Positions 19,656 through 55,052 of a stretch of 64,000 bases of DNA are shown here, piece by piece. Made by a program: the position numbers and the translations under genes. The notes beneath the pieces were generated by a model. That model searched no databases. It saw only the letters and a list, made by a program, of their open reading frames with translations, and was not told the DNA's origin. Position 1 is the first letter of the stretch. Every line of letters begins with the position of its first letter. Origin of the DNA: Candidatus Saganbacteria bacterium (GTDB lineage Bacteria > Margulisbacteria > WOR-1 > XYC2-FULL-46-14 > WPAF01). Location of the stretch: the NCBI GenBank assembly GCA_009772965.1, contig WPAF01000007.1, positions 14,379 to 78,378 on the forward strand, read 5' to 3'.

Positions 19656-20734
19656 AAATTCTTTTAACCGGCGCCACAGGTTTTGTTGGAAGTAATATTT
19701 TAGAATTTCTGGTCGAAAATCACGAAGTTGATGAAATTTATTTAATTCTTCGGTCTACATCAGAACAAAATGCTTCTTCACGATTTCAAGATATGGTTGC
19801 CGCATCTAATACAATTGCCAGACATTACAACAAGGTGAAGCTTTTTAACGGTGATTTGAGCGTTAGGAATTTTGGCTTAAAGGAAAACGAGTATAAGTTT
19901 CTAACTCAACAAACCAATATTGTCATTCATGCCGCGGCCTCAACGCAATTTGACCTAGAATTGACAGAAGCCATGAAAATTAACTTCGATGGCACCAAGC
20001 ATATCCTCGATTTTTCAGAAGCATGCAAGGAATTCAAGCATCTTTTTTATATTAGCACTGCATATATTGTTGGCAATTACCCCCAGGTTTTTAAAGAAAG
20101 CGATTATAATGTTAATCAAAAGTTTGAAAACTCCTATGAAGAAACAAAGTATTTAGCCGAAGGAGAAGTAAGAAGAGGAATTAGCTCTCTACACTCGACT
20201 ATTATTCGCCCTTCTATCCTCATCGGCGATTCACAAACTGGAAAGGTTCAGGGGTTCAAAGTCTTATATCCATTTATTAAATTGATTGCGCAAAAAGCTC
20301 TTTCTATCATTCCATGCCAATCAGAAGCCTGTCTAAATTTGGTTCCAATTGACTACTTTAATCTGATATTTAGCATTCTTTTTAAATATCAACTATCAAA
20401 GAATAAACCATCCCATCTAAACATTAGTACTTCCACCTTCCATGTTATTAACAATCAAAATGCCATGATTAAAGATTTAATTGAGTACGGGTGTCCAATT
20501 TTAAATATTGAAGCGCCTCTTTTAGTAGATCCGGAAAAATTACCACCTCAAAGAAGAAGGGTTATTAAAAGAATGTTTAATCATTATTTCCCTTATCTCA
20601 ATCGCCCACATTTATTTGACAATAGTAATACATTAAAAGTTGCTCAGCATCAGTGCCCAATTATTGGCAAGGATATTATAAAGAATATGCTTAATTATTG
20701 TTGCGAAGTAGGATATTTAAATAAACATCGATGA
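19652..20734 (+). CDS. NAD(P)-binding thioester-reductase / fatty-acyl-reductase-type SDR (NAD_binding_4-like)
   Basis: LTGATGFVGSNILEFL then LRS, and a YEETKYLAE YxxxK catalytic motif. Matches the male-sterility/thioester-reductase domain family. ATGA overlap on both sides. Confidence 0.75.
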   Translation: MKILLTGATGFVGSNILEFLVENHEVDEIYLILRSTSEQNASSRFQDMVAASNTIARHYNKVKLFNGDLSVRNFGLKENEYKFLTQQTNIVIHAAASTQFDLELTEAMKINFDGTKHILDFSEACKEFKHLFYISTAYIVGNYPQVFKESDYNVNQKFENSYEETKYLAEGEVRRGISSLHSTIIRPSILIGDSQTGKVQGFKVLYPFIKLIAQKALSIIPCQSEACLNLVPIDYFNLIFSILFKYQLSKNKPSHLNISTSTFHVINNQNAMIKDLIEYGCPILNIEAPLLVDPEKLPPQRRRVIKRMFNHYFPYLNRPHLFDNSNTLKVAQHQCPIIGKDIIKNMLNYCCEVGYLNKHR

Positions 20735-21900
20735 CTTCATCTGAGATTAATTTTAGAATTGTAGATACTGTTGAGGCTTGTGGAAAAGATCGATGGGACG
20801 CTCTCGTGGGAGAACATGGGATTTGCAATTGCTATGATTATCTTCTCGCTTTAGAGAAATCCAAAATTAATGATTTCCGATACAAATATATATTAATTTA
20901 TCAAGAGAATACTTTAATCTTTGGCATGGTTGTTTTTGTCACCCAGCAACTCTATTTAGATGTTCCTGTCTCGCAAGAGTTTAAAAAAGTTATTAATTTC
21001 CTTCGTAATGTCTTCCCTAGATTTTTAGTCGCAAAAGCTATTGTTTGTGGTTCTCCGATAGCTGAATGTAATTATTTTTCTTATAAATCCGGCACTAACT
21101 TGCAATTTGTTTTTATGAAAGCCCAAGAAGCCATAGCAAAATTAGAACAAGAAGAAAAGATCAACTTAGTGGTTTTTAAGGATTTTGAAGAAAATCAACA
21201 AGTTGACCCCCACCTAAAAAAGCTTGGTTTTACTAAAGTTTATTGCCTTCCCAGCACTGTTCTAAAAACAAGATATGCCGACTTCAAAAAATACCTCAAA
21301 AGTCTTAAAAATAAATATAGAGCGAATATAGTTAATAAAATAAATAAAATTCACTGCAATCTTGATTCGGAAATTTCCTGGCAAATAAAAGATAAAATTG
21401 AAAGTATTTATTCTTTATATTTACAAACTTATGAGCGAGCGCCAGTAAAGTTTGAAAAATTAAATAAACAGTTTTTTCTGGATCTTTTCTCGAATTTGCC
21501 CGAAAAGAAGCGCTGTCTTTTACTCTTTAAGTATAATCAAAATATTATCGCTTTCGCAGTTCTTCTCATATGCAAAAATAATTGTATTAATTTTCGTATA
21601 GGAATGGATTACAGTGTCAACAAGGAATTGCATGTTTATTTCCATCTTTTATATCACAACATTGAATTTTGTATTAAACAACAGTTGGATAATCTTTATT
21701 TGAGCCAGACCTCATATCGGCCAAAATTAGAGCTTGGTGCAAGACTTTATCCGATCGTTGGTTATTTAAAGCATAGGAATCCTATTTGGCATAGGATATT
21801 ATCATTATTAATGAAAATATTTTTTAGAAGGTATTCTGAGTTAGCACTGTCCGCCAATCCTATAGAAACTTTAAAAAAAATATTTCCGGAGTATTATTAA
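20731..21900 (+). CDS. DUF482/FemAB-like (PF04339-like) GNAT-fold putative acyltransferase
   Basis: 389 aa. N-terminal W..L......CYDYLLALEKS recalls the DUF482 fLsALEeSG signature, recalled from memory and not searched. Confidence 0.55.
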   Translation: MTSSEINFRIVDTVEACGKDRWDALVGEHGICNCYDYLLALEKSKINDFRYKYILIYQENTLIFGMVVFVTQQLYLDVPVSQEFKKVINFLRNVFPRFLVAKAIVCGSPIAECNYFSYKSGTNLQFVFMKAQEAIAKLEQEEKINLVVFKDFEENQQVDPHLKKLGFTKVYCLPSTVLKTRYADFKKYLKSLKNKYRANIVNKINKIHCNLDSEISWQIKDKIESIYSLYLQTYERAPVKFEKLNKQFFLDLFSNLPEKKRCLLLFKYNQNIIAFAVLLICKNNCINFRIGMDYSVNKELHVYFHLLYHNIEFCIKQQLDNLYLSQTSYRPKLELGARLYPIVGYLKHRNPIWHRILSLLMKIFFRRYSELALSANPIETLKKIFPEYY

Positions 21901-21905
21901 TAGAA

Positions 21906-22586
21906 ATGAAATACTTAATAAGTATACTATTCGTATGTTTAACTATTTCAATAATTAGTAGGCCCGCTATCGGAAGCGAAGATAAGATTATAGATATATT
22001 AAGAAAGGCAGAAAAGGCTTACTCTCAAATTGGAAATTACTGCGCTGTTTTGGTTAAAAAGGAAAGAATTAATGATAAATATATTCTCGAGGAAATTTTG
22101 CTTAAATTCAAAAAACCATTTAAAGTTTACCTGAAATGGATTGGAAAAAACCATAAGGGTAGAGAGATAATATTTGACAAAGATAAAAACAATGGAAATA
22201 TGCTTGTAAGAGAAGGCAGTTTTCTACATTTTCTTACACACTCATTAAATCCCAAAAGCGATATGGCAATGGATGGACAGAGGCATTCAATAGATGAAAT
22301 TGGCATCGGAAACTTGATAACGAAAATTAGCATGGAAGTTAATAAAGCAGCGCAAAATAATGATATCGAATTATCATTTTCTGAAGATAATAACCACTAT
22401 GCTCTTTACGGTCATTTTCTGAATGATGAATATTATTCAAAGAAGTTTCATTTATTTGTAAATAAAGACAATTATATGATTAAACGAGCTGTTTTTTATG
22501 ATTCGAAAGGAATTTTTGAGGATTATACTTTTGATCAATTAGAATTAAACCAAAATTTCAGTGAGAAGGATTTCAGGTTTTATTAA
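21906..22586 (+). CDS. Secreted LolA-like/DUF1571-like lipid-carrier fold protein
   Basis: Signal peptide MKYLISILFVCLTISIISRPAIG; 226 aa. The composition is typical of periplasmic LolA-like proteins. Last gene of the co-directional operon. Confidence 0.45.
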   Translation: MKYLISILFVCLTISIISRPAIGSEDKIIDILRKAEKAYSQIGNYCAVLVKKERINDKYILEEILLKFKKPFKVYLKWIGKNHKGREIIFDKDKNNGNMLVREGSFLHFLTHSLNPKSDMAMDGQRHSIDEIGIGNLITKISMEVNKAAQNNDIELSFSEDNNHYALYGHFLNDEYYSKKFHLFVNKDNYMIKRAVFYDSKGIFEDYTFDQLELNQNFSEKDFRFY

Positions 22587-25175: not shown

Positions 25176-26297
25176 TTATAGTTTGCGGTTCAATTCAATG
25201 TATCCAACAGCCATGATATCGTCGCCGACTTTTTCAACCTGTAAATTTTTTAGTTTAACGGCCTTTGCTAAGAATTTCTCGCCTTCGCCTTCTAATGGGG
25301 TTTTTGCTTTTTCCCCGCCGATTAATTTTGGGGCAATAAAAAACACCACTTTATCTACAATGCCGGAAGCAATTGCCAATGCATTGGTATTGCCTCCACC
25401 CTCAATCAAAATGCTGGTAATTTTTCTTTCGCCCAAATCTTTCAAAAGCAAATCGAGGTTGAAACGGCCTTTTGCGCTTTTTGCGACAATGATATTAGCT
25501 TTTTTTGCTTTCAATTTTTTTATTTTTTGTTTAGGGGCTTTATTGCTGACAACTATTATCGCGTTTTCGGGTTCTATCTTTAATATTTTAGAATTAATAT
25601 TTATCCTTGCCATGGGATCAAGGACGATTTTTTTCGGATTCTTGGTTTTTCCTTCAAATTCCCTTACGGTTAATTCGGGATTATCTTTAATGGCTGAGTT
25701 TACGCCTATAATGATGCCGTCAACAATATTTCTTAAATGATGGGCTTTTTTTCTGGCCTCAATGCTGGTTATCCAGAAGCTTTCTCCTGTTTTTGTGGCG
25801 ATTTTCCCATCCAAGCTCATGGCCGCTTTTAAAATCACATAAGGCCTTTTTGTTGTGATGTATTTGATAAAAACCTCGTTAAGGATTTTTGCTTCTTCTT
25901 CAAGCACCCCGACAACAACTTCAATGCCGGCTTCTTTTAATTCTTTAAATCCCTTTCCCGAGACTGAGGGGTTGGGGTCTTTTATGGCGGCTACTACCCT
26001 TTTTATCCCGGAGTTAATTATGGCTTGGGTGCAGGGAGGATTATTTTTTTCAACAAAAAAACAGCAGGGCTCAAGGTTAACATACATTGTGGCGCCAAAA
26101 GCATATTTCCCTGCTTTTTTTATTGCCCAGGATTCGGCATGGGGGGTAGTTGCTTCGGCGTGGTAGCCGGTTGAGATTATTTTTCTATTTTTAACTATTA
26201 CCGCGCCGACCATGGGGTCGGGAGAAGTTAATCCTCGTGTTTTTTCTGCGAGCTTTAGCGCTTCGCGCATAAATTTTATATCTTCTTCAGCTGGCAT
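25176..26297 (-). CDS. ribD: Bifunctional riboflavin biosynthesis protein RibD (deaminase/reductase)
   Basis: Deaminase zinc motifs HAE and PCxxC, then a C-terminal RibD_C reductase domain. Start is probably the internal Met (MPAEEDIKFMREAL), giving an ~11-nt overlap with relA/spoT. Confidence 0.8.
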   Translation of the reverse strand: MPAEEDIKFMREALKLAEKTRGLTSPDPMVGAVIVKNRKIISTGYHAEATTPHAESWAIKKAGKYAFGATMYVNLEPCCFFVEKNNPPCTQAIINSGIKRVVAAIKDPNPSVSGKGFKELKEAGIEVVVGVLEEEAKILNEVFIKYITTKRPYVILKAAMSLDGKIATKTGESFWITSIEARKKAHHLRNIVDGIIIGVNSAIKDNPELTVREFEGKTKNPKKIVLDPMARININSKILKIEPENAIIVVSNKAPKQKIKKLKAKKANIIVAKSAKGRFNLDLLLKDLGERKITSILIEGGGNTNALAIASGIVDKVVFFIAPKLIGGEKAKTPLEGEGEKFLAKAVKLKNLQVEKVGDDIMAVGYIELNRKL

Positions 26298-28308
26298 ACT
26301 GCATGATTCTATCATATTTTTTCAAAAAATTGTCCAATTGGATGGATTGAAAATTGCAGTAAATAGGAATATCTATTATTATTTTCCCGTTTTTCCTTTG
26401 ATAGCTTTCTATTGGGAAGAGATCAAATAATTTATTTATTATTTCATCTATGTTTGATGACTCTTCCAATTCCAGCTTAACCGTTTTTATAGGACTGCCA
26501 TTCGGGTTTTTAAGAGAATTTTTTAAGTTGCCAGCAATTTCTTCGGCAGACAATTTAGAATCAAACATTTGATCGGCAAGCGAGTCTAAAAAAATAATAG
26601 AATCCTCAGAGCTAAAATTATCGGCATTAATATAAATTCCAGCCAAGCTTTTTGCTAAGATTCCTTTTCCAAGCTTATGCTTAAATTCCAGGCTTTGGGT
26701 TTGGATATATTCATAAAACTTATATCTTGCCAGCGGATTTTTTAGCAGGGAATTATAGTCCCTATATTGAATTTCGTTTGATAGGTGTAGTACAATTACC
26801 CCAATTCCTTCGGAGATCGGCTGGTCGATGGGTTTGCTAATATCATAATGAAAGGCATTAACAAGATGTATTCCCGTTTGCGGGTCCGCGATAATAGCCG
26901 CCTCAAGCGGAGAAATCCCTCGCGGCAAGAGAACATCTCTTAAATGATTGATCCTTTGGCCTTTTTCATTATCTACTATGATATCGGCAAGCCGCGCTTG
27001 TGCCAGGGATTTAGTCAATAAAATTTTATCTCTCCTATCCATTACTGTCAGGATCAATCTCAGCCAATCATTGTTCAACCAAGGCAAATTGGGCTGGATA
27101 AATTTTCCGCCCGCCGTATAGGCCCCGTGCAAAACTCCTTCCTGCGCTACTCCTTGCATTTGCTGGGTTCTAATCTGAAATCTAATCAAAATTCCGTTAT
27201 ATGTAATGGCGGTATGAAGCGATTGGTAGCCGCCTATTTTTGGGTCCTTTATATAATCATGCCAGTAGCGGTCCATTGGCAGCCCAAGCCCATGGATTAA
27301 ATTAATGACCTGATAGCAGTCTTGTTCTGTTTCTACTGTAATTTGAATCATAATAATATCCGAAAAGTTTTTTATCTCAGCATTTTTCATAGTTGTGATT
27401 TGAAAAATTTCATAAGGAGTTCGTGATTTGCTGAATATTCTAAATAGTCTAGTAAAATAACTAGAATAATTAAATTGATTTGCACGCATCGATCTTAAAG
27501 GCAGGGAGGACAATAAACTCTCAAGATAAAGAGTTTTTATGGTTTTAATTAGATCTAATATGAGCTGGTTGTTTTTGTTATATACTTCTTTTATTGTTGA
27601 TTGAATAGCCGCGTGTTGGTTAGGATAAAGAGCCTTAAACGCCACATCCGATAAATGCCTGGCCGCTTTCATCAATCCAACTAAGACGCTAAGCGGAACA
27701 TAAAAATCAAGCGCTTCTTGGGCGTTTCTTATCCTGCTCTCATCCCCCAAGCTTTCTGCATCCAATAGATTAATGGCTCGATCAGTCATTTTAAGCCGGA
27801 GCGTCCTGATGTCTTTTAATAATGCCTGCAAGAATTTGTTGATATTCTCTTCATTAATCAATCTGTCGTTTTCAAATTGTTTTATTTTGGTCAACCCGTC
27901 AACCAGGCCGGCAACCGCTCCGCCAAATTTATCTTCAATAAAAGACAGGTCTATTTCAGTATCTTCGACTGTGTCATGAAGGAGTCCGGCAATCAGCTCG
28001 TCTTCGTCAACAACATGGAGCACCTCAAACTCTTTTTCGGCTAGCGTTATTGGATGGTCGGCGTAGGGGGAATTATTAAATTTACGGAACTGGTTCCTAT
28101 GGGCATAAACACACAAACCTGCGGCCTCAAAAAATCTTTCTCGATTAAAAATGGGTGAAGCTGCTTTTAGTTTATTTGCTAGAGAATAAATCCTATTGGC
28201 AAAAACCGATTTTCTAAGTTCTCTTATAAAAAAATCTCTTCCTGTTGGCACAATAAAAGTTTTCCCGGATTTTTGTATAAGAACGCGGGTTAGGTTAATT
28301 GTTAGCAT
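26287..28308 (-). CDS. RelA/SpoT-family (p)ppGpp synthetase/hydrolase
   Basis: HD hydrolase motif LLHDTVEDT, synthetase motif GYQSLHTAI; 673 aa. Confidence 0.8.
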   Translation of the reverse strand: MLTINLTRVLIQKSGKTFIVPTGRDFFIRELRKSVFANRIYSLANKLKAASPIFNRERFFEAAGLCVYAHRNQFRKFNNSPYADHPITLAEKEFEVLHVVDEDELIAGLLHDTVEDTEIDLSFIEDKFGGAVAGLVDGLTKIKQFENDRLINEENINKFLQALLKDIRTLRLKMTDRAINLLDAESLGDESRIRNAQEALDFYVPLSVLVGLMKAARHLSDVAFKALYPNQHAAIQSTIKEVYNKNNQLILDLIKTIKTLYLESLLSSLPLRSMRANQFNYSSYFTRLFRIFSKSRTPYEIFQITTMKNAEIKNFSDIIMIQITVETEQDCYQVINLIHGLGLPMDRYWHDYIKDPKIGGYQSLHTAITYNGILIRFQIRTQQMQGVAQEGVLHGAYTAGGKFIQPNLPWLNNDWLRLILTVMDRRDKILLTKSLAQARLADIIVDNEKGQRINHLRDVLLPRGISPLEAAIIADPQTGIHLVNAFHYDISKPIDQPISEGIGVIVLHLSNEIQYRDYNSLLKNPLARYKFYEYIQTQSLEFKHKLGKGILAKSLAGIYINADNFSSEDSIIFLDSLADQMFDSKLSAEEIAGNLKNSLKNPNGSPIKTVKLELEESSNIDEIINKLFDLFPIESYQRKNGKIIIDIPIYCNFQSIQLDNFLKKYDRIMQYAS

Positions 28309-28364: not shown

Positions 28365-29000
28365 TTATCTTTTCAGTTTATTGATAGCTTCTCTATAATT
28401 GCTGGAATAGAAGATTGCCGAGCCGGCAACTAAAATGTTTGCACCCGCCTTGACTGCTTCTTTTGCGGTTTCGGCATTGATGCCTCCATCCACCTCAATA
28501 TCAAGCGAGTTGCCTGCTTTTTGGCGCAGCGATTTGATTTTTGGAAGGACTTCGGGCAAAAACTTTTGCCCCTCAAACCCGGGGTTGACTGTCATAAGAA
28601 GGATCATTTGCACTTTATCAAGAATATTAAAAACCGATTCAATTGGAGCGCCTGGATTTACCGCAACTCCGGCTTTTGCGTTATTGCGTTTTATCAGTTC
28701 CAGGTCTTCGATAAGATTTTTTGAGGCCTCAACGTGGATTGTAATAATATCGGCGCCGGCTTTTGCAAAGTAGGGGATGTAGCGGTCGGGATTTTCTATC
28801 ATTAAATGGACGTCCAGAGGAAGGTTGGTTATTTTTTTTACCGCTTTTACCACCAGCGGGCCGATAGTTATATTTGGGACAAAGTGCCCATCCATAACGT
28901 CAATATGGATTAAGTCTGCGCCCGCTTTTTCTACTGCTTTTATTTCATCTCCAAGTTTTGAAAAATCAGCTGATAATATGGAAGGGGCAATTTTTATCAT
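28365..29000 (-). CDS. rpe: Ribulose-phosphate 3-epimerase
   Basis: MIKIAPSILSADFSKLGDEI...HIDVMDGHFVPNITIGP. Confidence 0.9.
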   Translation of the reverse strand: MIKIAPSILSADFSKLGDEIKAVEKAGADLIHIDVMDGHFVPNITIGPLVVKAVKKITNLPLDVHLMIENPDRYIPYFAKAGADIITIHVEASKNLIEDLELIKRNNAKAGVAVNPGAPIESVFNILDKVQMILLMTVNPGFEGQKFLPEVLPKIKSLRQKAGNSLDIEVDGGINAETAKEAVKAGANILVAGSAIFYSSNYREAINKLKR

Positions 29001-29428
29001 TGTGCTTCACCTGTGCTTTCTTTTGTTGTTTCATTGCTTTTTATAATGTAGTCGATCGTTTTTGGCTTTCCTATAATAATTGTGACTGCACGGCCTTCTT
29101 TTGCCACTCTTCCCGCTTCCGGCCTTTGAAATGAAACCACATCCTCATTTTCATAATTTTTTTCGACAAAACAAATAAGGCCGATAGATTCAAGCTTTTC
29201 AAACGCTTCCATTTCTGAAAGACCAATTACATACGGCACCACTGTTTCAGGGAGAGGAGAAAAATGGGTTAATACAATATAACTTATAATTACAGGGGCG
29301 GAGATAATAGCCAAAATCATTGCCATAAACCTGAATTTAAACCTAAACTTCAGACGGGAAACAAGAAAGGCGATAAGGAGAGCGATAAAAATAATAAAAA
29401 TTAAATAGTATGTCAATAATTCGCGCAT
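28997..29428 (-). CDS. Membrane-anchored stand-alone PASTA-domain protein
   Basis: N-terminal TM helices, then VPYVIGLSEMEAFEKLESIGL...FQRPEAGRVAKEGRAVTIIIG, a PASTA fold signature. Its start overlaps the kinase stop (TAATG). Confidence 0.6.
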   Translation of the reverse strand: MRELLTYYLIFIIFIALLIAFLVSRLKFRFKFRFMAMILAIISAPVIISYIVLTHFSPLPETVVPYVIGLSEMEAFEKLESIGLICFVEKNYENEDVVSFQRPEAGRVAKEGRAVTIIIGKPKTIDYIIKSNETTKESTGEAQ

Positions 29429-30387
29429 TATTGCCCCGCCAGTATCTGGGAATAAATTATTGAGTAGATAACCCCTGCTAAAACCGCGAGCAGAACCACA
29501 ATAGCTAAAAAGAAACTGCGCTTTTGTTCTTTCCTCTCAACTATAATTACTTTTTCTTCCGGCCGCGGCGCGTTTTCAAGCTCAACCATAGGCACGGCTT
29601 TTTTATTTTCAAAAAGTGTTCGGTTGTTGATGCTTTCTAAAAGTTCATCCATGCTTTTAAATCGCATAAGGCAGTCTTTTTCCAGGCATTTTGAAAGAAG
29701 ATCAGAAATGTGCTTTGGCGCCGGGGGGAGTTTTGCTGTTTGGGATATTTTTTCAAGCGGCAGGCCTTTAAACGGGACACTGCCGGTGAGCATTTCATAT
29801 AATAATATTCCCAGGGAATAAGCGTCTGAAGAAGGACGAGCCGGCATGCCCAAAATTTCTTCAGGGGAGGCGTAATCGCTTTCTGCCAAAATATATTGAG
29901 CTTTTTGGGGCATGGATTCCCTTATATCGCCCTCAATGATAAAGTCTGAAACGACGACTTTGTTATCTGGCTTGATAAAAATATTAGTTGGCTTTAAAGC
30001 TCCGTGGATTATGCCGATTTTATGGGCATCTGATAAAATCCCGGCGATTTTATAAACCAGATCCAAGGCAAATTGCGGATCAGGATTATGGTTTTTTAAA
30101 AAATCCCTGAGATTTTGCCCAACGACAAATTCCCTGACATAGTAAAATCCTTGCCAGCCGTAATCGCCGTCTAAGAGGAGGGCAATCCCTTCGCTTTCAA
30201 TTCCCTGAAGGGCTTTGACTTTTTCTTTCATTGATTTTATCAATACCGAGTTTAGGGTGCCGCGCTTATAGATTTTTATTATTACAGGTTGTTCTCCAGA
30301 AAGGGTGGTTCCCCGGTAGGTGAGGGAAAAAAGGTTTTCGCCGATTTTTTCGCCGATTTTAAACTTGCTTTTTAAAAGCCGTTCCAT
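29428..30387 (-). CDS. Hanks-type Ser/Thr kinase-like protein with degenerate catalytic motifs (predicted pseudokinase); C-terminal TM anchor
   Basis: Kinase fold with the VAIK-like lysine present. The catalytic loop reads HGALKPTN where HRDLKPxN is expected. DFG is replaced by DFI. C-terminal TM FFLAIVVLLAVLAGVIYSIIY. Confidence 0.75.
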   Translation of the reverse strand: MERLLKSKFKIGEKIGENLFSLTYRGTTLSGEQPVIIKIYKRGTLNSVLIKSMKEKVKALQGIESEGIALLLDGDYGWQGFYYVREFVVGQNLRDFLKNHNPDPQFALDLVYKIAGILSDAHKIGIIHGALKPTNIFIKPDNKVVVSDFIIEGDIRESMPQKAQYILAESDYASPEEILGMPARPSSDAYSLGILLYEMLTGSVPFKGLPLEKISQTAKLPPAPKHISDLLSKCLEKDCLMRFKSMDELLESINNRTLFENKKAVPMVELENAPRPEEKVIIVERKEQKRSFFLAIVVLLAVLAGVIYSIIYSQILAGQ

Positions 30388-30528
30388 TGAAAGTGATTAT
30401 ATCATACAAACGTAATGCGTAAAACGCGCAACCATAACTCGTAATGAGTAATGCGGGGCGGCATATTTTGAAGTATTCCAAATCCTACTAAAGTGGGGTA
30501 TAATAATAATTAAGGAGGGGTATTTTTT

Positions 30529-30933
30529 ATGTTAGTTGAAGGATCAGGAGGAAAACCCTGGAAATTTTCGTTTTATTCAATTTTTCGTCCGCCTATAGTA
30601 AGGGAAGGGGCTAGTGTAAGAACAGACCTTAGGGCATTAGATGTTAAATTTTCACCGATAATGTCTAGTATGGTTGATAAGCTTTCCCGCTTGCCGGAAG
30701 AAACTTACAACGGTTTAATTGGCTGTATCAAAAGACTTAAAGAGAGATATTCACTTGACACCCCAACTGAGTTGCTTTTACCAAAACTGGATAGCAAACT
30801 AATGACTTATCCCTTTAAAGAGGTGCCCCCAAAATTATTATGGGATCAATATTACCAGATTGCGTCAGATCTGCCATTTGGGACATTAGACCTTCGAAGG
30901 ATAGAAGACAGCAGATTTCGGTTTGAAAAATAA
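30529..30933 (+). CDS. Hypothetical protein
   Basis: 134-aa ORF preceded by a strong RBS (AAGGAGGGG). No motif recognised. Confidence 0.4.
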   Translation: MLVEGSGGKPWKFSFYSIFRPPIVREGASVRTDLRALDVKFSPIMSSMVDKLSRLPEETYNGLIGCIKRLKERYSLDTPTELLLPKLDSKLMTYPFKEVPPKLLWDQYYQIASDLPFGTLDLRRIEDSRFRFEK

Positions 30934-30972: not shown

Positions 30973-33219
30973 ATGAGTAGTGTTGCAGTGTCATTAAGAA
31001 TTAAGCTTTCAAGCTTGATTTATCCAGAATACAAAGCCGCAAGAAGAATTGTTAGTGAACAATTTGAGTCAGCAGGATTGCATTTAACTTTTCGCTTGTT
31101 AAGTTGTTTTGAAGCTCTTTATTTGGATCACCGTGAAAAATATTCAACTTGGCTGGAAATACTAAGCCAGATTGCTTTTGAAGGTGATGGGACGATAAGT
31201 CTTTCTGCCCCCCCAATACAATCTATTACTTCATTTGAAATCAATTCGTCTAATAGGGAAGAATTGAAAGATAGCCTTAGAGAGCTGATTGATAACAAGG
31301 GGAGAAGAGGTAGATGGCTTGATTTGGCCAAATTAAATTTTTCTGCTTTAAATAGAAGAGTAAAAGAATCTTCTAATCCAAGCATTGAAGCCGTACCTCC
31401 AACAAACATACACCCCGGATTTCAAATTCTACCAAATGTTATTGGCGACACATTGGATATTATCCAAGATGAAATTGGATATTTTGAGAAAATTGCAAAT
31501 AACCCAAAATCAACCATTGAAAGCGTATTTAAGGCGCTTAAATTGGGGATGTGCAAATTTGGGTTTAGGAATATAACTATTTACTTTCCGCTTCCAGATG
31601 GTAAAAAGTGGACATTATTCCAAAGATTTAAAGCTGAAAATGGAAATAGATCACAACGGGAACAAAAAGTCAGTAAATACGCAAAAGAAGAAGGGGAAGA
31701 TCCAACAACAACGCTAAAAGGAATAATTGAAGGGCAATTGAACGTTTATGACTTAGATCTTAACGATACCTCAACTTTTAGTCAGGCAGGGGTGCCGGTA
31801 GATGAAAGTTCTCTGCAAAATGATTTAACGACATCGGTTGGGCCGGGACGAACTTTATTTTTCCGGTTAGTTTCAAATGAAGGAAGAGTAGAAGCAGTGA
31901 TACAAATTGATAACCGCATTGGAAAAGAAAATAGGTTTGTAAGAAAAGAAGATATCTTGCAAATATTTGGCGCCGACAGTGAACAATTATGGGAGAGATT
32001 CTTCAGGCATTTGAGTGATGGTGAAAAGCTGGAAGCCGAAGCGCGATTTCCAGGTTCCAACACAGAAGATATTTTAATGTTTAAAGAGGATGTAGAAGGG
32101 AATCCAAAACTTAGTGGGCAAATTGCCAAAATGAAAATTACTGATAACCAAAAAACAGCTTTCAAAAAACTTATGCAAAGAGCCCAGGTGAGTGATTATC
32201 TTTTACCGAGCAACTCGGCAGAAGGAGTAAAAACAGCATTAGGACTCTATTTTAGAGAAGTTGTATCAACAATTAATGCTATTAGGGCAAGAGAAGAAAA
32301 AGAAAAATCAAGAGAAAGAGAAATAAGGGACCATAAAACTATCGAAAAATTGCAACAAGCAAGAACTGATGATGAAGTTGTCGCGATTTATGAAAGAGTT
32401 TCTAAGGAAGCTTCAGCAACTCAACCCTCAATAAGCCAGTTTAATGCCGGGAGTGAAGTCTATAACACAGGTGATTATACTACTGAACACGTCATAGAGC
32501 CGGCAAAAAGCCTAGCAATCATGTGGAATACTGTAAAAGAAAAATGCAATCGAGTGATAAAAAGTGCATTGGGTGTTGCGGAAGATATGAAACCTATTGA
32601 ATTGTTTAAGCATGTCATTTTAACAAGCATAGCGCTTTTTGATTGGCATAAAAAAGGCATTGATGAACAAGGTAACGCGGTTAAAGAAGTAACAGGTTTT
32701 GCCGTTTCAGATTATCATCATGATTATGTTGATTCTAAAGGAAAACTAAGAGGATTAGTTTATTACGCGGGGATAATGGTTGAAAAAGAGCATTGGGGTG
32801 GGAGGGCGGCTTATTTAACCTCTTTAATGATGAAAGTAATATTTAAAGGATTGGGTTTCTTTAAGATCTTGAGAGGAAAAGTCCCTCTAATATTTAGGAC
32901 GCAAGATAGGGCGATTTTTGAAAAAGGGGAAAGATATTATTCGGCTAAAAGCGATTATAGGGAATTTATAGAAGAGGATTGGAACGCAGCTAGATTTGTT
33001 GCTCAAAAAAATGGTTGGACATTAAAGGAAGGGACGAATATTTGCGAGAGAGTATATTCTAAAAAAATGGCGAGAAATGATGATTACATGTTGCCTGAAC
33101 TGGGAGAATATGACGGCAAAGTATGTGTTGGATATGTCAGCATAAAAAGCTTATGGCGGCTTTTTGTTGATAAGATTACCGCTAGCTTTAAAAGAAAAAA
33201 GAAGAGGAGTAAAAAATAA
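30973..33219 (+). CDS. Large hypothetical protein (748 aa)
   Basis: Long uninterrupted ORF with a basic KRKKKRSKK tail. I see a possible GAF-like middle region and a C-terminal HWGGRAAYL segment vaguely resembling GNAT motif A. Both are eye-level impressions only. Confidence 0.45.
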   Translation: MSSVAVSLRIKLSSLIYPEYKAARRIVSEQFESAGLHLTFRLLSCFEALYLDHREKYSTWLEILSQIAFEGDGTISLSAPPIQSITSFEINSSNREELKDSLRELIDNKGRRGRWLDLAKLNFSALNRRVKESSNPSIEAVPPTNIHPGFQILPNVIGDTLDIIQDEIGYFEKIANNPKSTIESVFKALKLGMCKFGFRNITIYFPLPDGKKWTLFQRFKAENGNRSQREQKVSKYAKEEGEDPTTTLKGIIEGQLNVYDLDLNDTSTFSQAGVPVDESSLQNDLTTSVGPGRTLFFRLVSNEGRVEAVIQIDNRIGKENRFVRKEDILQIFGADSEQLWERFFRHLSDGEKLEAEARFPGSNTEDILMFKEDVEGNPKLSGQIAKMKITDNQKTAFKKLMQRAQVSDYLLPSNSAEGVKTALGLYFREVVSTINAIRAREEKEKSREREIRDHKTIEKLQQARTDDEVVAIYERVSKEASATQPSISQFNAGSEVYNTGDYTTEHVIEPAKSLAIMWNTVKEKCNRVIKSALGVAEDMKPIELFKHVILTSIALFDWHKKGIDEQGNAVKEVTGFAVSDYHHDYVDSKGKLRGLVYYAGIMVEKEHWGGRAAYLTSLMMKVIFKGLGFFKILRGKVPLIFRTQDRAIFEKGERYYSAKSDYREFIEEDWNAARFVAQKNGWTLKEGTNICERVYSKKMARNDDYMLPELGEYDGKVCVGYVSIKSLWRLFVDKITASFKRKKKRSKK

Positions 33220-35446: not shown

Positions 35447-38400
35447 ATGCTTGATTTTCTTATCCAATTGCAGAGCTTCTTTTTATTGTTCGCGTTTATT
35501 ATTAATCTCGCCCTCGCGATATTTATCCTATTCAAAAACCGCCATAGCACCATGAACCGTTCTTTTTTTGCTTTGCTTTTAGGCATAGCATTATGGACAT
35601 TTAGCCTTTTTCTCTTTTTGGTAATAAAAGATACAAATTGGGTTCTATTTATCAGGAGATTAACCCCGATCGGATCTTCTTTAATCGCGGGTTATTTCCT
35701 GTATTTTTCACTACTGTTTCCTGACCAAAACCAGACATTGTCTACTCTTAAAAAAAGCTTAATCCTGCTTCCCGGATACTTGTTTTCGTTATTAACAATT
35801 TTAACTCCCTTTATGGTAGAAAGCATAAGCATCCAAGACCCCTCGTACCCATTTTTAGGGATCCCGAAATTTGGCTTTCTCTATAAGCTCTTTGCTGTTT
35901 ACTTTATCACTTATTTTATCGCGTCAATATCTGTCCTGGTTTATAAATATTTAAAAAGCGAAGGAAGGGTAAAGCTCCAGCTTTGGTATGTGCTTTTTGG
36001 TATGGCTTTGGCGGGGACGGCGGGGATCATATTTAGTTTAATAATGCCTATTTTAAACATGTCGCAGTTCTTTACCATGGGGCCTATATTTACCCTGATT
36101 TTAGCTGGGTTTATTTCTTACGCGATTGTTAAGCATAAGCTTTTGCAGATAGAAGAGTTGTTAACCCGGGGAATTTATCTGCTTCTTGTCTTGTCTGCAA
36201 TAGTTGGAACCTGCACCTTTATCCTCATCGAATTTATACCAATATTTTATCTGATATTGATCCAAGTTGGTTTAGGCGCTGTGATATATTTTCAAAACCG
36301 AAAAAGCGAAATAAATCAGGCATATTCTGCGTTTGTCTTATTTTTTGCCCTATGGAATTTCTTTTCTTTTAAAGTAACCCAGAGAAGCTCGTTTCAGATG
36401 ATAATTGAAGATAAATTAATCTTTATCCCTGCAGCTTTTTTAATAGCGTTTTTTTTATATTTTACTTATGTTTTTCCAAGAACTAGGAAAAGTTTCAATA
36501 ATCTTCGCAGGGGGTTAATTTTTATCCCCCCCGCGATTATGGCCGCGCTTGTTCCATTTGATCTGATTGTAAAAAACGTGGAAGTGATAAACGGTGTCTT
36601 ATCCCCGGTTTTTGGCAAATGCTATTTGCTTTTTGTGGGGTATGCTTTTGTATATATATTCATTGGTTTAAATAATCTCGTTAAGCAATATGTGGCTTCT
36701 TCCGGAATTGAAAAACTTCAGGTTAAATATGTTTTTCTGGGAATATTTTTAAGTTTTTTTGTGTTAATTTTAACAAACTTAATTCTCCCATGGTTTGGTG
36801 AAGCCCGGTTAACCCCGTACGGATCATTTTTTACGTTGTTTTTTACGTGTTTTACGGGCTATGCCATAGTCAAACACCGGCTGATGAGCATAGAATTTAT
36901 CATCCAGCGCAGTTCAGTTTATGCTTTTGCTACCGCGCTGATCATGTCTTTATATGTTGCCGCGATTTTTATTTCAGAGGTTTATTTGCGCAAATTTATC
37001 GGCTATTCTTCGTTTTTAGTTACTGCACTTTCGGTTTTGCTTATTGCTTTTATTTACCATCCGCTGGTCAAATCGTTTCAGGATGTTACGGATAAAATAT
37101 TTTTCCGCAACCGGTATAATTACCAAAAAGTATTAAGGCAAATCATTGATACAATGAAAGTTTCAGAAATATCATTTTTACTGCCGGACAAAGAGCATTT
37201 TCGCTCTACTCCGCTGGTGTTCCCAAGATATAAAAAAATTGAGATTGATATTAAGAGCCCTATTATTAACTGGCTTTCCGGCAGAAGGGATATTTTAATA
37301 AAAGAAGAAATTGAAGAAGAGATTTCAAAATCCTTTTTAGACAAAGAAGAGCTGATACTCAAAAAACAATGCGAAGAACTAAGGGATGCTATTGAAAGGC
37401 TGGGAATACCAGTTTGGGTTCCGATAATATTAAAAGACAAGCTGATCGGCATAATTGCGCTTGGCGACAAGCTTTCCGGAGAAGTTTTTACATCTGAGGA
37501 TATTGAACTCTTAATAACACTTGCCAACCAAACCGCCTTAGCTCTTGATAACTCCCGCCTTTATGAAGAAGTAGTGAATATCAAGGACTACAATGAAGAA
37601 GTTTTGCATTCAATGGTGTCCGGCGTGATAACGGTAGATACGCGGGGAAATATTGTGACCTTTAACCCGATGGCGGAAAAAATTACCGGTAAAAATGCGC
37701 CGGAAATAATCGGCAAAAACTGCAAAGAAATATGGGGAGAAAGAGGGACAATCACAAGCGTCATTGAAAATACTTTGAAAAAAGAAAAGGGATATAAAAA
37801 TTACGAATCCGGCATAATTGTAAAAGACAGGGGGATGGTTCCTGTTTCGCTTTCGTCAATTGTAATCCACGACCACAGCAGAAAAAAAGCCGGAGCGCTG
37901 GTTAATATTATGGATTTGACAGAGGTCAAAGAGCTTGAAGAAAAAGTAAGGCGCGCGGATAAATTGTCCGCGCTGGCAACCATGGCCGCCGGCATGGCGC
38001 ATGAAATCAAAAATCCATTGTCATCCATGAAAGTGCTGTCCCAGCTTTTGCCGATAAGATTCCAAGATGAAGAGTTTAGGAAAAAATGCATAGAAATTCT
38101 GCCCAGGGAAATAGCAAGGATTGACCGCATTGTTGAATCGCTTTTGGGCTTTGCCCGTGCAACATCTCCAAAATATGAAAAAATGAGGATTGAAAGCGTT
38201 ATTGAAGAAAATATTGTTTATTACACCGGCCAGGCAAAAACCTCCGGCGTTGAAATCAGTAAAGAATTTGCCGCGCTTCCTGAAATAATGGGAGATCATG
38301 ACCAGCTGAACCAGGTTTTTTCAAACCTGATGCTAAATGCCATCCAAGCCATGCCGGATGGCGGGAAGCTGGAGATTAAAACCTTTGAAGGGAAAAAGGT

Positions 38401-38641
38401 TGATGACGTATTGCAAAGTATAAAGATCGAAATATCCGACACGGGCCACGGGATACCGCCGCAAAACCTCAAAAAGCTGTTTGACCCGTTTTTTACCACA
38501 AAATATTCCGGCACCGGGCTGGGGCTCACGATAACGCACAACATCATAGAAGGCCATAGAGGGCAGATAGATGTGCAATCAGAGCTTGAAAAAGGGACAA
38601 CTTTTACCATTGCTTTACCGATCAATCAAGAATTGGTATAA
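35447..38641 (+). CDS. Multi-TM sensor histidine kinase (about 12 or more TM helices, PAS, HisKA, HATPase_c)
   Basis: Long hydrophobic N-terminal half, PAS-like region with NPMAEKITGKNAPEIIGKNC, H-box AHEIKNPLSS, N/G boxes with GTGLGLTI; 1064 aa. Confidence 0.85.
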   Translation: MLDFLIQLQSFFLLFAFIINLALAIFILFKNRHSTMNRSFFALLLGIALWTFSLFLFLVIKDTNWVLFIRRLTPIGSSLIAGYFLYFSLLFPDQNQTLSTLKKSLILLPGYLFSLLTILTPFMVESISIQDPSYPFLGIPKFGFLYKLFAVYFITYFIASISVLVYKYLKSEGRVKLQLWYVLFGMALAGTAGIIFSLIMPILNMSQFFTMGPIFTLILAGFISYAIVKHKLLQIEELLTRGIYLLLVLSAIVGTCTFILIEFIPIFYLILIQVGLGAVIYFQNRKSEINQAYSAFVLFFALWNFFSFKVTQRSSFQMIIEDKLIFIPAAFLIAFFLYFTYVFPRTRKSFNNLRRGLIFIPPAIMAALVPFDLIVKNVEVINGVLSPVFGKCYLLFVGYAFVYIFIGLNNLVKQYVASSGIEKLQVKYVFLGIFLSFFVLILTNLILPWFGEARLTPYGSFFTLFFTCFTGYAIVKHRLMSIEFIIQRSSVYAFATALIMSLYVAAIFISEVYLRKFIGYSSFLVTALSVLLIAFIYHPLVKSFQDVTDKIFFRNRYNYQKVLRQIIDTMKVSEISFLLPDKEHFRSTPLVFPRYKKIEIDIKSPIINWLSGRRDILIKEEIEEEISKSFLDKEELILKKQCEELRDAIERLGIPVWVPIILKDKLIGIIALGDKLSGEVFTSEDIELLITLANQTALALDNSRLYEEVVNIKDYNEEVLHSMVSGVITVDTRGNIVTFNPMAEKITGKNAPEIIGKNCKEIWGERGTITSVIENTLKKEKGYKNYESGIIVKDRGMVPVSLSSIVIHDHSRKKAGALVNIMDLTEVKELEEKVRRADKLSALATMAAGMAHEIKNPLSSMKVLSQLLPIRFQDEEFRKKCIEILPREIARIDRIVESLLGFARATSPKYEKMRIESVIEENIVYYTGQAKTSGVEISKEFAALPEIMGDHDQLNQVFSNLMLNAIQAMPDGGKLEIKTFEGKKVDDVLQSIKIEISDTGHGIPPQNLKKLFDPFFTTKYSGTGLGLTITHNIIEGHRGQIDVQSELEKGTTFTIALPINQELV

Positions 38642-38650
38642 TCCTACTAA

Positions 38651-39892
38651 ATGCGAGACCGAATAAAAGTATCAATAATTGAAGACGATCCCAAAATAAC
38701 TGCGCAGCTTGTAGAAGCATTAAAAGATAAATTTAAAGTTGAAACATTTGAAAAGAAAGATGAATTTTTAAAAGCAGCGGATCCCTCCGGCATTGTGATA
38801 ATTGATTTTGACCTGAAAGAAATAGACGGGCTCAGGGTTTTCAGGCTGTTAAAAGAACAAAGCCCCAAAATTCGCGCCGTAATGTTATCTTCCTCAAACA
38901 GCATCCCGCTGGCAGTAACCGCGGCAAAACACGGGGTGTTGGAGTTTTTCAGAAAGCCATTGATTATTGCCGAGTTTAAAGAGGCGCTCATTAAAATCGC
39001 AAACGAGGAAGAAATATTCCTTTTGCCGGATGCTGAAATGGAGGGGACGGAGTGGATGAGGGGGTCAAGCAAGAAGATAATTGAATTAAAAGAATCAATA
39101 ATCGGATGTATTAAATCGCATAAGGATCTGATCTTGTTTGGGGAGAGGGGAATTGATAAGAAAACAGTTGTCAGGATTATCCATAAAGCCGGAGTCAACT
39201 CGGCAAAAAAATTAATTGAAATAGACCTTGCCTCATTTAGCAAAGAATCGCTTGAGGCGCATTTTTGGGCGACATTAAACGAGGTGTTGTCTTCTTCTGA
39301 GGCGGACAGCATCCAGAATTTTGCGGAAAAAACCGGAACAGTTTATATTGAAGGGATTGAATCAATCCCAAAGCATTTTTGGCTGAGCGTAATTGACTTT
39401 TTGAAAAATAAAAAGCCTTCTTACGGAGGGGGAATCAAAGTCATCATCGGCATTGTTGAGCAAACAGAAATTCCTGCAGGGACAACCTTTGATTTAATAA
39501 AAATCCCGCCGCTCAGGGAAAGGAAAGAAGATATTTTTGAAATTGCCGCGGCCTATCTTGAGGGCAAAACCGATTTTACTAATATATCTTTGGAAACGCT
39601 CAAGTTTATTTCACGCTACAATTTTTATGGAAATTATGAGGAGCTTTATAATTTAATCTCATCAACGCCTTTGGCGGGCGGCAAAATGTTAAATATTAAC
39701 AAAAGTATGTTTATTGATTCTATTTTAGAAAACTGCGGGCAAAAAAGCCTTTTGGCCGCAAGAGAGCAGTTTGAAAAAGAATATATCCAGACAGTTCTTT
39801 TAAAAGTAAATAATGAAATTCATTTGGCCGCGAGGTTTTTAAATATACCAAAAACTATCCTTGAGGAAAGGGTTCAAAAATTAGGAATTTAA
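38651..39892 (+). CDS. NtrC-family-like response regulator with a degenerate AAA+ sigma-54 interaction domain and a C-terminal Fis-type HTH
   Basis: Receiver domain (VSIIEDD...IDFDLKEIDGL). Central domain has GERGIDKKTV where the Walker A GESGTGKE is expected, and no GAFTGA motif. C-terminal HTH LAARFLNIPKTILEERVQKL. Confidence 0.6.
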   Translation: MRDRIKVSIIEDDPKITAQLVEALKDKFKVETFEKKDEFLKAADPSGIVIIDFDLKEIDGLRVFRLLKEQSPKIRAVMLSSSNSIPLAVTAAKHGVLEFFRKPLIIAEFKEALIKIANEEEIFLLPDAEMEGTEWMRGSSKKIIELKESIIGCIKSHKDLILFGERGIDKKTVVRIIHKAGVNSAKKLIEIDLASFSKESLEAHFWATLNEVLSSSEADSIQNFAEKTGTVYIEGIESIPKHFWLSVIDFLKNKKPSYGGGIKVIIGIVEQTEIPAGTTFDLIKIPPLRERKEDIFEIAAAYLEGKTDFTNISLETLKFISRYNFYGNYEELYNLISSTPLAGGKMLNINKSMFIDSILENCGQKSLLAAREQFEKEYIQTVLLKVNNEIHLAARFLNIPKTILEERVQKLGI

Positions 39893-45588: not shown

Positions 45589-45631
45589 CCATGCAAGTTT
45601 TCTCCCCTCTGAAGCGATATATATAATGAAA
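45589..45631 (+). promoter_or_regulatory. Conserved upstream motif pair CCATGCAAGTTTTC ... CGATATATATAATGAAA, 44 nt before the giant ORF start. Also found before the paralog at 51884
   Basis: Identical 14-mer and 17-mer upstream of both paralogous genes. The 17-mer contains TATAAT, and its spacing to the ATG is the same (44-45 nt) in both. Confidence 0.45.
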
Positions 45632-45675
45632 TGCCATATGCCTGTGGATGGTGTATTTTTTTTGAGGGAGGAATA

Positions 45676-54116: not shown

Positions 54117-55052
54117 ATGAATACAACTTTACCATTAGGAAATCTAAAAACACCGCAGCTTGCCTGTCAAGCCCCGCCGCATATTTATCCAGGGCAAAAA
54201 ATTGGCAGTTCTTACATTATCAAAGGAAAAATTGCTGAAGGGGGAATGGGTGTGGTTTATAAAGCTTTTGATGAACAAGGGAATCCGGCAGCCGTAAAAA
54301 TTGCTGTTTTTGGCACGGAATGGTTTAAAAGAGAACAAGAAATCTTAAGAAGACTTGAAGGAAATCCACATGTCCCGCAATTATTAGAAGTGCCAGTTAC
54401 AAACAACAATTATTATGTTATGCAGTTTATTGACGGGATCACATTGCATGATGAGATTGAAATAAACGGGAAAATTTCTTTGCCAAAAGCCATGGATTTA
54501 ATGGCCCAAATTTGTTTCGGTTTAAAACTGGCGGCAGAAAAAAATATATGCCACAGGGACATTAAACCGGAAAATATTATGCTAACAAATGAAGGGAAAT
54601 CTTTTATAATCGACTTTGGCATAGGCAAGATTGGGAACAGCAATGGCGGGAATTACGGTACTGCACTGTTTTCTTCGCCGCAACAGATGAAGGGCGAGCC
54701 TACTGGCCACCGAGATGATATTTATAGCTTGGGAGTCGTTTTTTATTGCATGCTTAGCGGACATTCTCAACCCTTTATCTGCGCAAATAACGATGATGCG
54801 CTTTATATTGAAAAAACTACTACCGATTTACCTCCTATCAAGATTAAATTCCCGACATTGAAAGATCGGGTTAATAGTATGCTTAAAAAAATGCTGGCGG
54901 TATCCAGGGAAGAAAGATGCCAAACTTATGAGGAGATTCTTGAGGCAATTGAAGAAATTAAAGGAGAAATAAAAAAATTAGAGGAACAGGAACAAGCAAT
55001 TAGAAAAGCTTCTATAATAGCAACACTCAGGGAGAAAAAGCGTGACACGTAA
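54117..55052 (+). CDS. Hanks-type Ser/Thr protein kinase (predicted active), cytoplasmic
   Basis: GxGxxG-like loop EGGMGVVYKA, AVKIA lysine, catalytic loop HRDIKPENIML, DFGIGK. No TM segment. Confidence 0.85.
   Translation: MNTTLPLGNLKTPQLACQAPPHIYPGQKIGSSYIIKGKIAEGGMGVVYKAFDEQGNPAAVKIAVFGTEWFKREQEILRRLEGNPHVPQLLEVPVTNNNYYVMQFIDGITLHDEIEINGKISLPKAMDLMAQICFGLKLAAEKNICHRDIKPENIMLTNEGKSFIIDFGIGKIGNSNGGNYGTALFSSPQQMKGEPTGHRDDIYSLGVVFYCMLSGHSQPFICANNDDALYIEKTTTDLPPIKIKFPTLKDRVNSMLKKMLAVSREERCQTYEEILEAIEEIKGEIKKLEEQEQAIRKASIIATLREKKRDT

Follow-up and report, generated by a model that had tools for sequence, protein, structure and literature searches.

A naturally split, predicted catalytically inactive PASTA-kinase-like gene pair in the Margulisbacteria/Saganbacteria lineage

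Introduction

Is a kinase-like gene that is directly followed by a PASTA gene a receptor kinase divided in nature, or a single gene broken by an error in the sequence? In monoderm bacteria, the textbook case of a link from the status of the cell wall to cytoplasmic phosphorylation is provided by the PASTA kinases, which are also antibiotic-adjuvant targets. The window analysed here, a stretch of 64,000 nucleotides (nt) of contig WPAF01000007.1 from Candidatus Saganbacteria, raises this question on its minus strand, where a kinase-like open reading frame (ORF) of 319 amino acids (aa), a PASTA ORF of 143 aa and rpe follow each other in a run (Table 1). The final A of the TAA stop codon of the kinase-like ORF is the A of the ATG of the PASTA ORF (TAATG, 29428-29432), and rpe overlaps the stop of the PASTA gene by 4 nt. 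A Rel/SpoT-type gene (26287..28308) and then ribD (25176..26315) lie downstream on the minus strand. The initial annotation of the window, whose ORF coordinates, strand and TAATG overlap are exactly as found here, left two explanations side by side: a naturally split pair of a pseudokinase and a PASTA protein, or a frameshift that had divided one gene.

The two genes are separate at every homologous locus

A scan of one genome per species in GTDB yielded 51 loci, which belong to Margulisiibacteriota, Saganbacteria, WOR-1 or unclassified genomes with the exception of two labelled Omnitrophota and Falkowbacteria, both probably mis-binned. The comparisons comprised 55 loci with a complete kinase ORF, the window included, and 56 evaluable loci once the most divergent locus (L057) is added. 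A separate kinase-like ORF ending at ~320-345 aa with a PASTA ORF right behind it was present in all 56, in line with the first of the two explanations in the initial annotation. Loci L001-L005 likewise carry two separate ORFs, and look-ups of distant homologues at 51%, 47% and 41% identity each returned a kinase gene of 314-340 aa and then a separate PASTA gene. The most divergent representative tested (P0279, 38% identity; locus L057) keeps the order kinase, PASTA, rpe and ribD. With sensible start codons assigned, the junctions between the two ORFs range from -17 to +54 nt. Relative to the kinase frame, the PASTA frame is 0 in 14 loci, +1 in 16 and +2 in 25; in the window it is -1.

A PknB-like gene artificially divided at position 29428 by a sequencing or assembly frameshift would be compatible with the one-base TAATG overlap and with the colinearity of both ORFs with a single-chain PASTA kinase. 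However, the identical split is found in 56 independent loci from different studies and assemblers, the junction geometries vary with all three frame relations present, and the PASTA protein has an extra transmembrane (TM) helix that single-chain kinases lack. Moreover, no fused relative was found. A HMMER scan of 1.84 billion representatives contained no fused form, its family members being 326-354 aa long, with fragments besides, and it showed a sharp drop from the family to generic kinases at 26-33% identity. None of the best 120 homologues of the kinase half (251-365 aa) carries a PASTA domain. Thus, neither search produced a fused orthologue with intact HRD and DFG motifs, the finding that the initial annotation had named as evidence for an error. 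The 56 loci, the varied junctions and the three frame relations rule out a sequencing or assembly frameshift, for which the estimated probability is negligible, and the three frame relations among orthologues also rule out a conserved programmed frameshift or read-through.

A further explanation is that the two genes are functionally unrelated neighbours, the PASTA protein working on its own, for example with a penicillin-binding protein or hydrolase as partner, and the kinase-like protein being an independent scaffold. PASTA domains can act apart from kinase activity; for example, the over-expressed PASTA region of PknB alone perturbs growth (PMC4632501). However, the genes are adjacent in 56 of 56 loci across 34-66% identity with near-zero intergenic distance, neither was found without the other in the loci examined, and together they are colinear with single-chain PASTA kinases. 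Such an unrelated pair is therefore improbable.

The kinase-like protein has lost the catalytic motifs throughout its family

The kinase-like ORF passes the Pfam Pkinase threshold (87.2 bits against a cut-off of 31.7), and a model computed with AlphaFold2 (AF2) from a 20-sequence alignment has a complete bilobal kinase fold (predicted local distance difference test, pLDDT, 84.9; predicted template-modelling score, pTM, 0.76). The best Foldseek matches of the model are Stk1 (9ymt), PknA (4ow8) and PknB, with template-modelling scores up to 0.84. Thus, the protein belongs to the Hanks-type fold. In the model, residues 263-287 are disordered and residues 280-318 form a long terminal helix, in line with the C-terminal TM helix described in the initial annotation; ~3 residues extend beyond the TM anchor. 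Family-wide, the 10 aa preceding this TM segment have a net charge of +2.6 and a median of 2 residues follow it. An identical protein (P0001, 100% identity) has been deposited from a Candidatus Saganbacteria metagenome-assembled genome.

Alignment of the window motifs with M. tuberculosis PknB showed that K38, N135 and D148 are kept, together with SPEE. The initial annotation had read the retained ATP-binding lysine, HGALKPTN and DFI directly from the sequence and had predicted the loss of phosphotransfer; the alignment bears out these readings and shows that the degeneration was understated. In HGALKPTN the HRD Arg is replaced by Gly and the catalytic Asp by Ala, whereas in DFI the metal-binding Asp is kept and the Gly is lost. 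In addition, the G-loop reads GENLFS and has lost its glycines, the alphaC-Glu is a Lys, the gatekeeper is an Arg, and there is no Thr at either activation-loop phosphosite of PknB. There is no deletion in the activation loop or alphaG. The protein thus lacks the combination of GxGxxG, Lys-Glu pair, HRD Asp and DFG that marks a catalytically competent Hanks kinase, and its sequence fits the operational definition of a pseudokinase, the loss of at least one of VAIK-Lys, HRD-Asp and DFG-Asp.

The degeneration is a property of the whole family. Motifs were counted in the 120 closest clusters, with positions referred to PknB numbering (R137, D138, E59, T171/T173). The HRD Asp (D138) is A, G or S in 119 of 120 and the HRD Arg (R137) is G or A in all 120. 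The alphaC Glu (E59) is K or R in all 119 sequences aligned at this column, with one gap. An Arg occupies the gatekeeper position in 120/120, and V, I or T has replaced the DFG Gly in 120/120 of this crown group. The counterparts of T171 and T173 are Q and A/V, leaving no conserved Thr in the activation loop. K38 is retained in 119/120, and N135 and D148 in 120/120. The divergent representatives, down to 38% identity, all have HG[A/S/T/H] and the signature DGDYGWQGFY[YF][VI]RE. Some of them keep the DFG Gly and an acidic alphaC residue, which suggests that the catalytic Asp was lost first and that the remaining motifs decayed later. The conserved degenerate motifs support the predicted loss of phosphotransfer, and the sequences together make it very probable that the split is natural and that the kinase is dead.

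The family alignment (A1) contains 48 invariant columns. Conservation is highest in the N-lobe (0.90 for beta4-beta5 and 0.88 for beta3), and the alphaG region (0.40) and the juxtamembrane linker (0.45) vary most. Selection is thus strong, although not on the surface that PknB-type kinases use for substrate docking. The residues R10 and D76, which make the back-to-back dimer contacts in PknB, correspond to K/R8 and an invariant D73 in the family.

The pattern of retained residues bears on a different explanation, in which the protein is not dead and carries out unconventional catalysis (phosphotransfer with another base, or AMPylation) or senses nucleotides or alarmones through its Lys, Asn and Asp. 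The invariance of K38, N135 and D148 in 119-120 of 120 sequences fits this proposal, as does the fact that the segments lining the cleft (beta3, beta4-beta5 and DFx-EG) are the most conserved. Atypical activities of 'pseudokinases' have precedents, such as SidJ (cited in PMC12599244), and a Rel/SpoT gene is in the same operon at 6 of 55 loci. However, ordinary ATP binding and catalysis are made improbable by the joint loss of the G-loop glycines, the Arg and catalytic Asp of HRD and, for the crown group, the alphaC-Glu, and also by the invariant gatekeeper Arg. No alternative catalytic residue was identified from the sequences. An unconventional activity thus seems rather unlikely.

The PASTA partner is a two-helix membrane protein

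The 143-aa ORF matches Pfam PASTA (PF03793) with an E value of 3e-5 and 24.3 bits, narrowly above the cut-off of 23.2; for the single sequence this score is marginal. The profile of the partner family matches the Stk1 ectodomain (3py9) at 9e-31 and the PknB ectodomain (2kui) at 8e-24; among solved structures it retrieved kinase ectodomains and no penicillin-binding protein. The domain thus passes the gathering threshold and resembles solved PASTA domains. A word-indexed search with the PASTA protein alone returned 6 relatives, and the partner family was recovered via synteny.

Hydropathy and the homologue alignment give the order TM1, short basic loop, TM2 with an invariant Pro, and a conserved PExxVPD entry into the PASTA domain. 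The initial annotation had assigned one TM segment and one PASTA domain to this protein; the single PASTA domain stands, while the TM segment has to be replaced by two helices. TM2 aligns to the single TM helix of Stk1-family kinases. In 45 distinct homologues the TM1-TM2 loop contains on average 2.76 K+R against 0.04 D+E, and the 20 residues past TM2 are net acidic. By the positive-inside rule, the loop would be cytoplasmic and the PASTA domain outside. TM1 is absent from the deposited NCBI gene model (P0121, 109 aa), which begins only at M35. The conservation of TM1 in all partner homologues argues for the 143-aa form with its start at 29428, and the truncated deposited model is corrected here accordingly.

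The number of PASTA repeats is one in this clade and two or three in others. The two-repeat partners at L004 (7029-7739), L013 (6029-6715), L019 (6030-6656), L022 (6005-6637) and L042 (5734-6462) have a charged low-complexity spacer and a C-terminal aromatic tail (GGFWPWW, GFKLWPW or GFWFW), which could be a sorting or anchoring signal and is absent from the window protein.

Both proteins are related to PASTA kinases

The best sequence matches of the kinase half in the PDB are Stk1 (4eqm), StkP, PknA and PknB, the same set as found by Foldseek. The best NCBIfam model for both proteins is NF033483, the Stk1-family PASTA kinase, to which they align colinearly: aa 2-275 of the kinase-like protein cover model positions 2-284, and aa 35-125 of the partner cover positions 338-432, that is, the TM helix and the first PASTA domain. 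Both scores (128 bits for the pseudokinase and 27 for the partner) are well below the equivalog cut-off of 450 bits, and the model describes one polypeptide with a kinase domain, a single TM helix and PASTA repeats, whereas two genes are present in 56/56 loci.

The relationship was also assessed by scoring 120 diverse bacterial kinases, originally collected for a different purpose, against a hidden Markov model (HMM) of the pseudokinase family. The nine PASTA-bearing kinases among them rank 1, 2, 4 and 6-11 of 120 (Mann-Whitney p = 6e-7), PASTA status being taken from Pfam; an HMM built from the one-repeat subfamily missed the PASTA domains of outgroup kinases (0 of 253 detected). In Firmicutes the prpC-prkC-cpgA triad is conserved, and rpe and thiN are its neighbours in B. 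subtilis (PMC6449344). Because the structure and profile matches, the colinearity, the HMM ranking and the rpe synteny agree, the pair probably arose by fission of a PASTA-kinase gene and loss of catalysis at the ancestral locus.

Comparison with the PASTA kinases (PknB of M. tuberculosis, PrkC of B. subtilis, StkP, and Stk1/PknB of S. aureus; NF033483; the 'KAPD' family) shows the same order of parts, namely a cytoplasmic Hanks fold, a juxtamembrane linker, a TM helix and an extracytoplasmic PASTA region. These kinases are the best sequence and fold matches of both halves, and rpe lies downstream near B. subtilis prkC as it does here. However, the pair consists of two polypeptides rather than one and has three TM helices rather than one. 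The catalytic Asp and Arg, the G-loop glycines, the alphaC-Glu (in the crown group) and the activation-loop Thr have disappeared. There is no gene for a PP2C phosphatase next to the pair, and the host is a probable diderm of the sister lineage of cyanobacteria rather than a member of Firmicutes or Actinobacteria.

Gene order and promoter of the operon

The pair is followed by rpe in 45 of the 55 loci, and ribD is present in 40. In the window, and likewise at 5 of the 54 other loci (L004, L011, L019, L023 and L033), the operon has a Rel/SpoT-type gene (HD_4 + RelA_SpoT) that separates rpe from ribD.

Upstream of the pseudokinase ATG, TTTACG and a 16-nt spacer precede TGATATAAT, an extended -10 element that ends 8 nt before the ATG. 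Of 51 distinct homologous loci, 34 have a TAnAAT box whose end lies 6-11 nt upstream of the start codon, and 29 of these boxes carry the extended TGn. As the conserved -10 box is so close to the start codon, the operon probably starts at the pseudokinase with a leaderless or near-leaderless mRNA. The extended -10 consensus TGnTATAAT was seen just upstream of the kinase start in the set of homologous loci L002-L046 and in the window (30396-30423, minus strand). In 19/51 loci an AATTTCA motif is located further upstream at variable distance; it is absent in the window. Two divergent ORFs of 134 and 748 aa (30529-30933 and 30973-33219, plus strand) are located directly upstream of the pseudokinase. 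Neither has a Pfam match, and neither occurs at any of the 54 other homologous loci, which suggests a strain-specific insertion.

A separate Hanks kinase in the window is an orphan

The plus-strand ORF 54117..55052 has an intact G-loop, VAIK, HRD and DFG, no TM helix and a C-terminal charged helix, which agrees with its initial description as an apparently active cytoplasmic Hanks kinase. Its best non-self relatives among 5.8 billion proteins are 35-38% identical and come from Bacteroidota and similar groups. It lies ~2.5 kb from a DDE transposase (50566-51597), scores last of the 120 kinases against the pseudokinase-family HMM, and was probably acquired recently. An orphan without any orthologue above 38% identity cannot serve as conserved partner to a family that occurs in more than 50 species, and this kinase was therefore rejected as a general partner of the pair. 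The link between the two that the initial annotation implied is thus not upheld.

This kinase is relevant to a further explanation, in which the pseudokinase tethers another, active Hanks kinase (encoded at 54117 or elsewhere in the genome) to the membrane and regulates it allosterically in a HER3-EGFR-like manner. Phosphorylation would then remain the end point of the PASTA signal. In favour of this are the conservation of the N-lobe, which exceeds that of all other regions, the retention of the PknB dimer pair R10/D76 as K/R8 and D73, the presence of an apparently active TM-less kinase in the window, and the fact that allostery from pseudokinase to kinase is common in eukaryotes (discussed in bioRxiv 10.1101/2025.01.12.632604). 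However, the identity limit, the nearby transposase and the last HMM rank of the 54117 kinase speak against it in this role, no kinase, PP2C or FHA gene was found in the annotated flanks of the homologous loci examined, and the activation loop of the pseudokinase has no conserved Thr. Such a partnership is unlikely.

Other features of the window

A minus-strand cluster at 8157-13194 encodes an ATP-binding cassette (ABC) ATPase, a LolA-like protein and two FtsX/MacB-type permeases, and is LolCDE-like. On account of this LolA-like/LolCDE-like cluster, the organism is probably diderm. On the plus strand, a same-strand cluster at 16663-22586 encodes two radical-SAM proteins (one with an HMPTM zinc ribbon, one B12-binding-like), a NAD_binding_4 reductase, a FemAB-like protein and a DUF1571 protein; a role in lipid or peptide modification is possible. 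At 35447-39892 (plus strand), a histidine kinase of 1064 aa, which has a seven-TM region at its N-terminus as well as GAF and PAS domains, is followed by a sigma-54-type response regulator. A plus-strand ORF of 1621 aa (45631-50496) adjoins the transposase and has no Pfam match at E <= 1e-3. The features of the pseudokinase locus are listed in Table 1.

Table 1. Positions of the pseudokinase, its PASTA partner and flanking elements in the window (aa, residues of the respective protein)
Feature	Position	Strand	Evidence
Pseudokinase, 319 aa: cytoplasmic Hanks fold, disordered juxtamembrane linker and C-terminal TM anchor	29428..30387	-	
Hanks-type kinase fold (aa 10-249)	29641..30360	-	Pfam PF00069, 1.5e-24; AF2; Foldseek
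Retained beta3 lysine K38 (VIIKIY)	30274..30276	-	K in 119/120 family members
Degenerate catalytic loop HGALKPTN (aa 128-135)	29983..30006	-	Read from sequence
DFI replacing DFG (aa 148-150)	29938..29946	-	Read from sequence
Pseudokinase C-terminal TM anchor (aa ~290-316)	29440..29520	-	AF2 helix 280-318
PASTA partner, 143 aa: two-TM hairpin and one periplasmic PASTA domain (predicted)	28997..29428	-	
PASTA partner TM1 (aa ~5-24)	29357..29416	-	Homologue alignment A2; hydropathy
PASTA partner TM2 (aa ~35-57, invariant Pro45)	29258..29326	-	Hydropathy; alignment; NF033483 alignment
PASTA domain (aa ~60-129), predicted periplasmic	29042..29251	-	Pfam PF03793; family domain HMM; profile matches
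rpe, ribulose-phosphate 3-epimerase (synteny marker, not a functional part)	28365..29000	-	Pfam, 4e-82
Promoter-like site upstream of the pseudokinase	30396..30423	-	10/12 match with TG

Discussion

The comparisons favour, with moderate confidence for the whole including its mechanism, the reading that the pair is a naturally split, catalytically dead descendant of a PknB/PrkC/Stk1-type PASTA kinase that has become fixed across the Margulisbacteria/Saganbacteria lineage. The invariable adjacency, the near-zero spacing and the colinearity with single-chain kinases suggest that the tail-anchor TM helix of the pseudokinase and the two-TM hairpin of the partner would form a three-helix membrane bundle; the near-zero spacing also suggests translational coupling. 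Such a bundle would restore the layout of a PknB-like receptor, its PASTA part facing the periplasm and its pseudokinase part the cytoplasm. The positive-inside rule supports the extracytoplasmic location of the PASTA domain, which is predicted to bind peptidoglycan precursors such as lipid II, or muropeptides. The output would not be phosphorylation but a ligand-dependent localisation, oligomerisation or conformational change of the pseudokinase, which would serve as a scaffold or switch acting via its conserved N-lobe surface. The pseudokinase may still bind nucleotide and metal. For this mechanistic part the chances are judged to be about even.

Several points weigh against this reading. 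Gene context is the sole basis for a physical interaction of the two proteins. An AF2 model of an artificial kinase+PASTA fusion, computed without an alignment, reached a pLDDT of 42 and a pTM of 0.23, with only the three TM helices helical, and carries no information on the interaction. Because K38, N135 and D148 are retained, the protein could bind nucleotide or even have an unconventional activity. At the position of L33, a residue of the PknB dimer interface, the family varies (T/G/S/N), which makes back-to-back dimerisation uncertain. To our knowledge, PASTA domains in a diderm periplasm have not been studied.

The loss pattern is the same as in eukaryotic pseudokinases of the HER3/ILK type, in which the catalytic base and the alphaC-Glu are gone and the beta3-Lys and the DFG-Asp are kept. 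By analogy, and because Lys38, Asn135 and Asp148 are invariant, nucleotide or metal binding without turnover is plausible, and the pattern is compatible with an allosteric or scaffold role. However, there is no specific sequence relationship to HER3 or ILK beyond this analogy, and the receptor part is a separate polypeptide here.

Seven conserved families of bacterial pseudokinases have been catalogued (ActPs1-3, GLW, CP1, DYD and DLHK). The VAIK-Lys is substituted in some or all members of each, none is PASTA-linked and none comes from this lineage (PMC12599244; bioRxiv 10.1101/2025.01.12.632604). PASTA kinases appear in the bacterial Ser/Thr kinase atlas as the canonical 'KAPD' family only. 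ActPs1, ActPs2, ActPs3, GLW and DLHK have the VAIK-Lys substituted in all members, are taxon-restricted (Actinobacteria or others) and carry family-specific indels (PMC12599244; bioRxiv 10.1101/2025.01.12.632604). By these published descriptions the present family stands apart, as it keeps the Lys in 119/120 and has no such deletions. CP1 is cytosolic and COG3899-linked, and DYD, found in Actinobacteria and Firmicutes, has DYD for DFG and Arg for the beta3 Lys. Compared by description, the present family differs from both in being TM-anchored without a COG3899-type extension and in having DF[VI] and a retained Lys. Literature searches, full text included, returned no PASTA-associated pseudokinase and nothing relevant on Saganbacteria kinases. 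The pair is thus apparently a real and undescribed non-catalytic variant of the PASTA receptor.

Non-catalytic roles of membrane-associated pseudokinases are known from other systems. The C-terminal pseudokinase of MviN/MurJ in M. tuberculosis (ActPs3) is, like the protein described here, membrane-associated and tied to peptidoglycan, and it is a regulatory scaffold rather than an enzyme (PMC12599244). It has lost all three catalytic residues, has a 40-residue deletion in the activation loop, is fused to the flippase, and is regulated by PknB phosphorylation and recruitment of FhaA. In contrast, the present pseudokinase keeps the Lys and the DFG-Asp, has a full-length activation segment and a PASTA partner, and no conserved phospho-acceptor was seen in it. 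EssB/YukC of type VIIb secretion is a monotopic membrane pseudokinase that works non-catalytically by dimerisation and recruitment (PMC12599244; PMC9600267). However, it has its own extracellular domain and degraded K/HRD/DFG motifs, is a member of a secretion machine and has no PASTA link. A sensor and a Hanks-fold output on separate, adjacently encoded membrane proteins, as proposed here, also occur in a Cache_heme-HAMP receptor with a separate Ser/Thr kinase (bioRxiv 10.64898/2026.05.25.727664). That system couples an active kinase through HAMP domains, whereas the pair described here has a pseudokinase as its output and presumably relies on the TM helices for coupling.

The succession of the kinase locus and rpe is an evolutionary marker, which suggests that the PASTA-kinase locus is older than the separation of Firmicutes from the cyanobacterial group. 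A more far-reaching proposal is that the pair is an ancient, vertically inherited receptor that predates the split of the Firmicutes and Cyanobacteria lineages, in which a non-covalent three-helix bundle carries the PASTA signal through the membrane to a Hanks-fold module whose phosphotransfer has been exchanged for another chemistry or ligand. Nucleotide or alarmone sensing would be a candidate, as would a SelO/SidJ-like reaction via Lys38/Asn135/Asp148, the gatekeeper Arg85 and Glu152. The proposal has a low probability; if true, the pair would be the first PASTA-linked signalling system that works without protein phosphorylation.

The current annotation as 'serine/threonine protein kinase' misleads for a split, catalytically dead descendant of a PASTA kinase. 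An entire lineage, the sister group of Cyanobacteria and probably diderm, has kept the receptor architecture and genomic position of PASTA kinases while the receptor, under strong purifying selection, was divided in two and stripped of its catalytic residues. Should the pair be a functional sensor, it would be a natural separation of the non-catalytic roles of PASTA kinases (localisation, scaffolding and dimerisation) from phosphorylation. It would then also constitute an eighth conserved family of bacterial pseudokinases, with a loss pattern (Lys kept, HRD-Asp lost) unrepresented among the seven catalogued.

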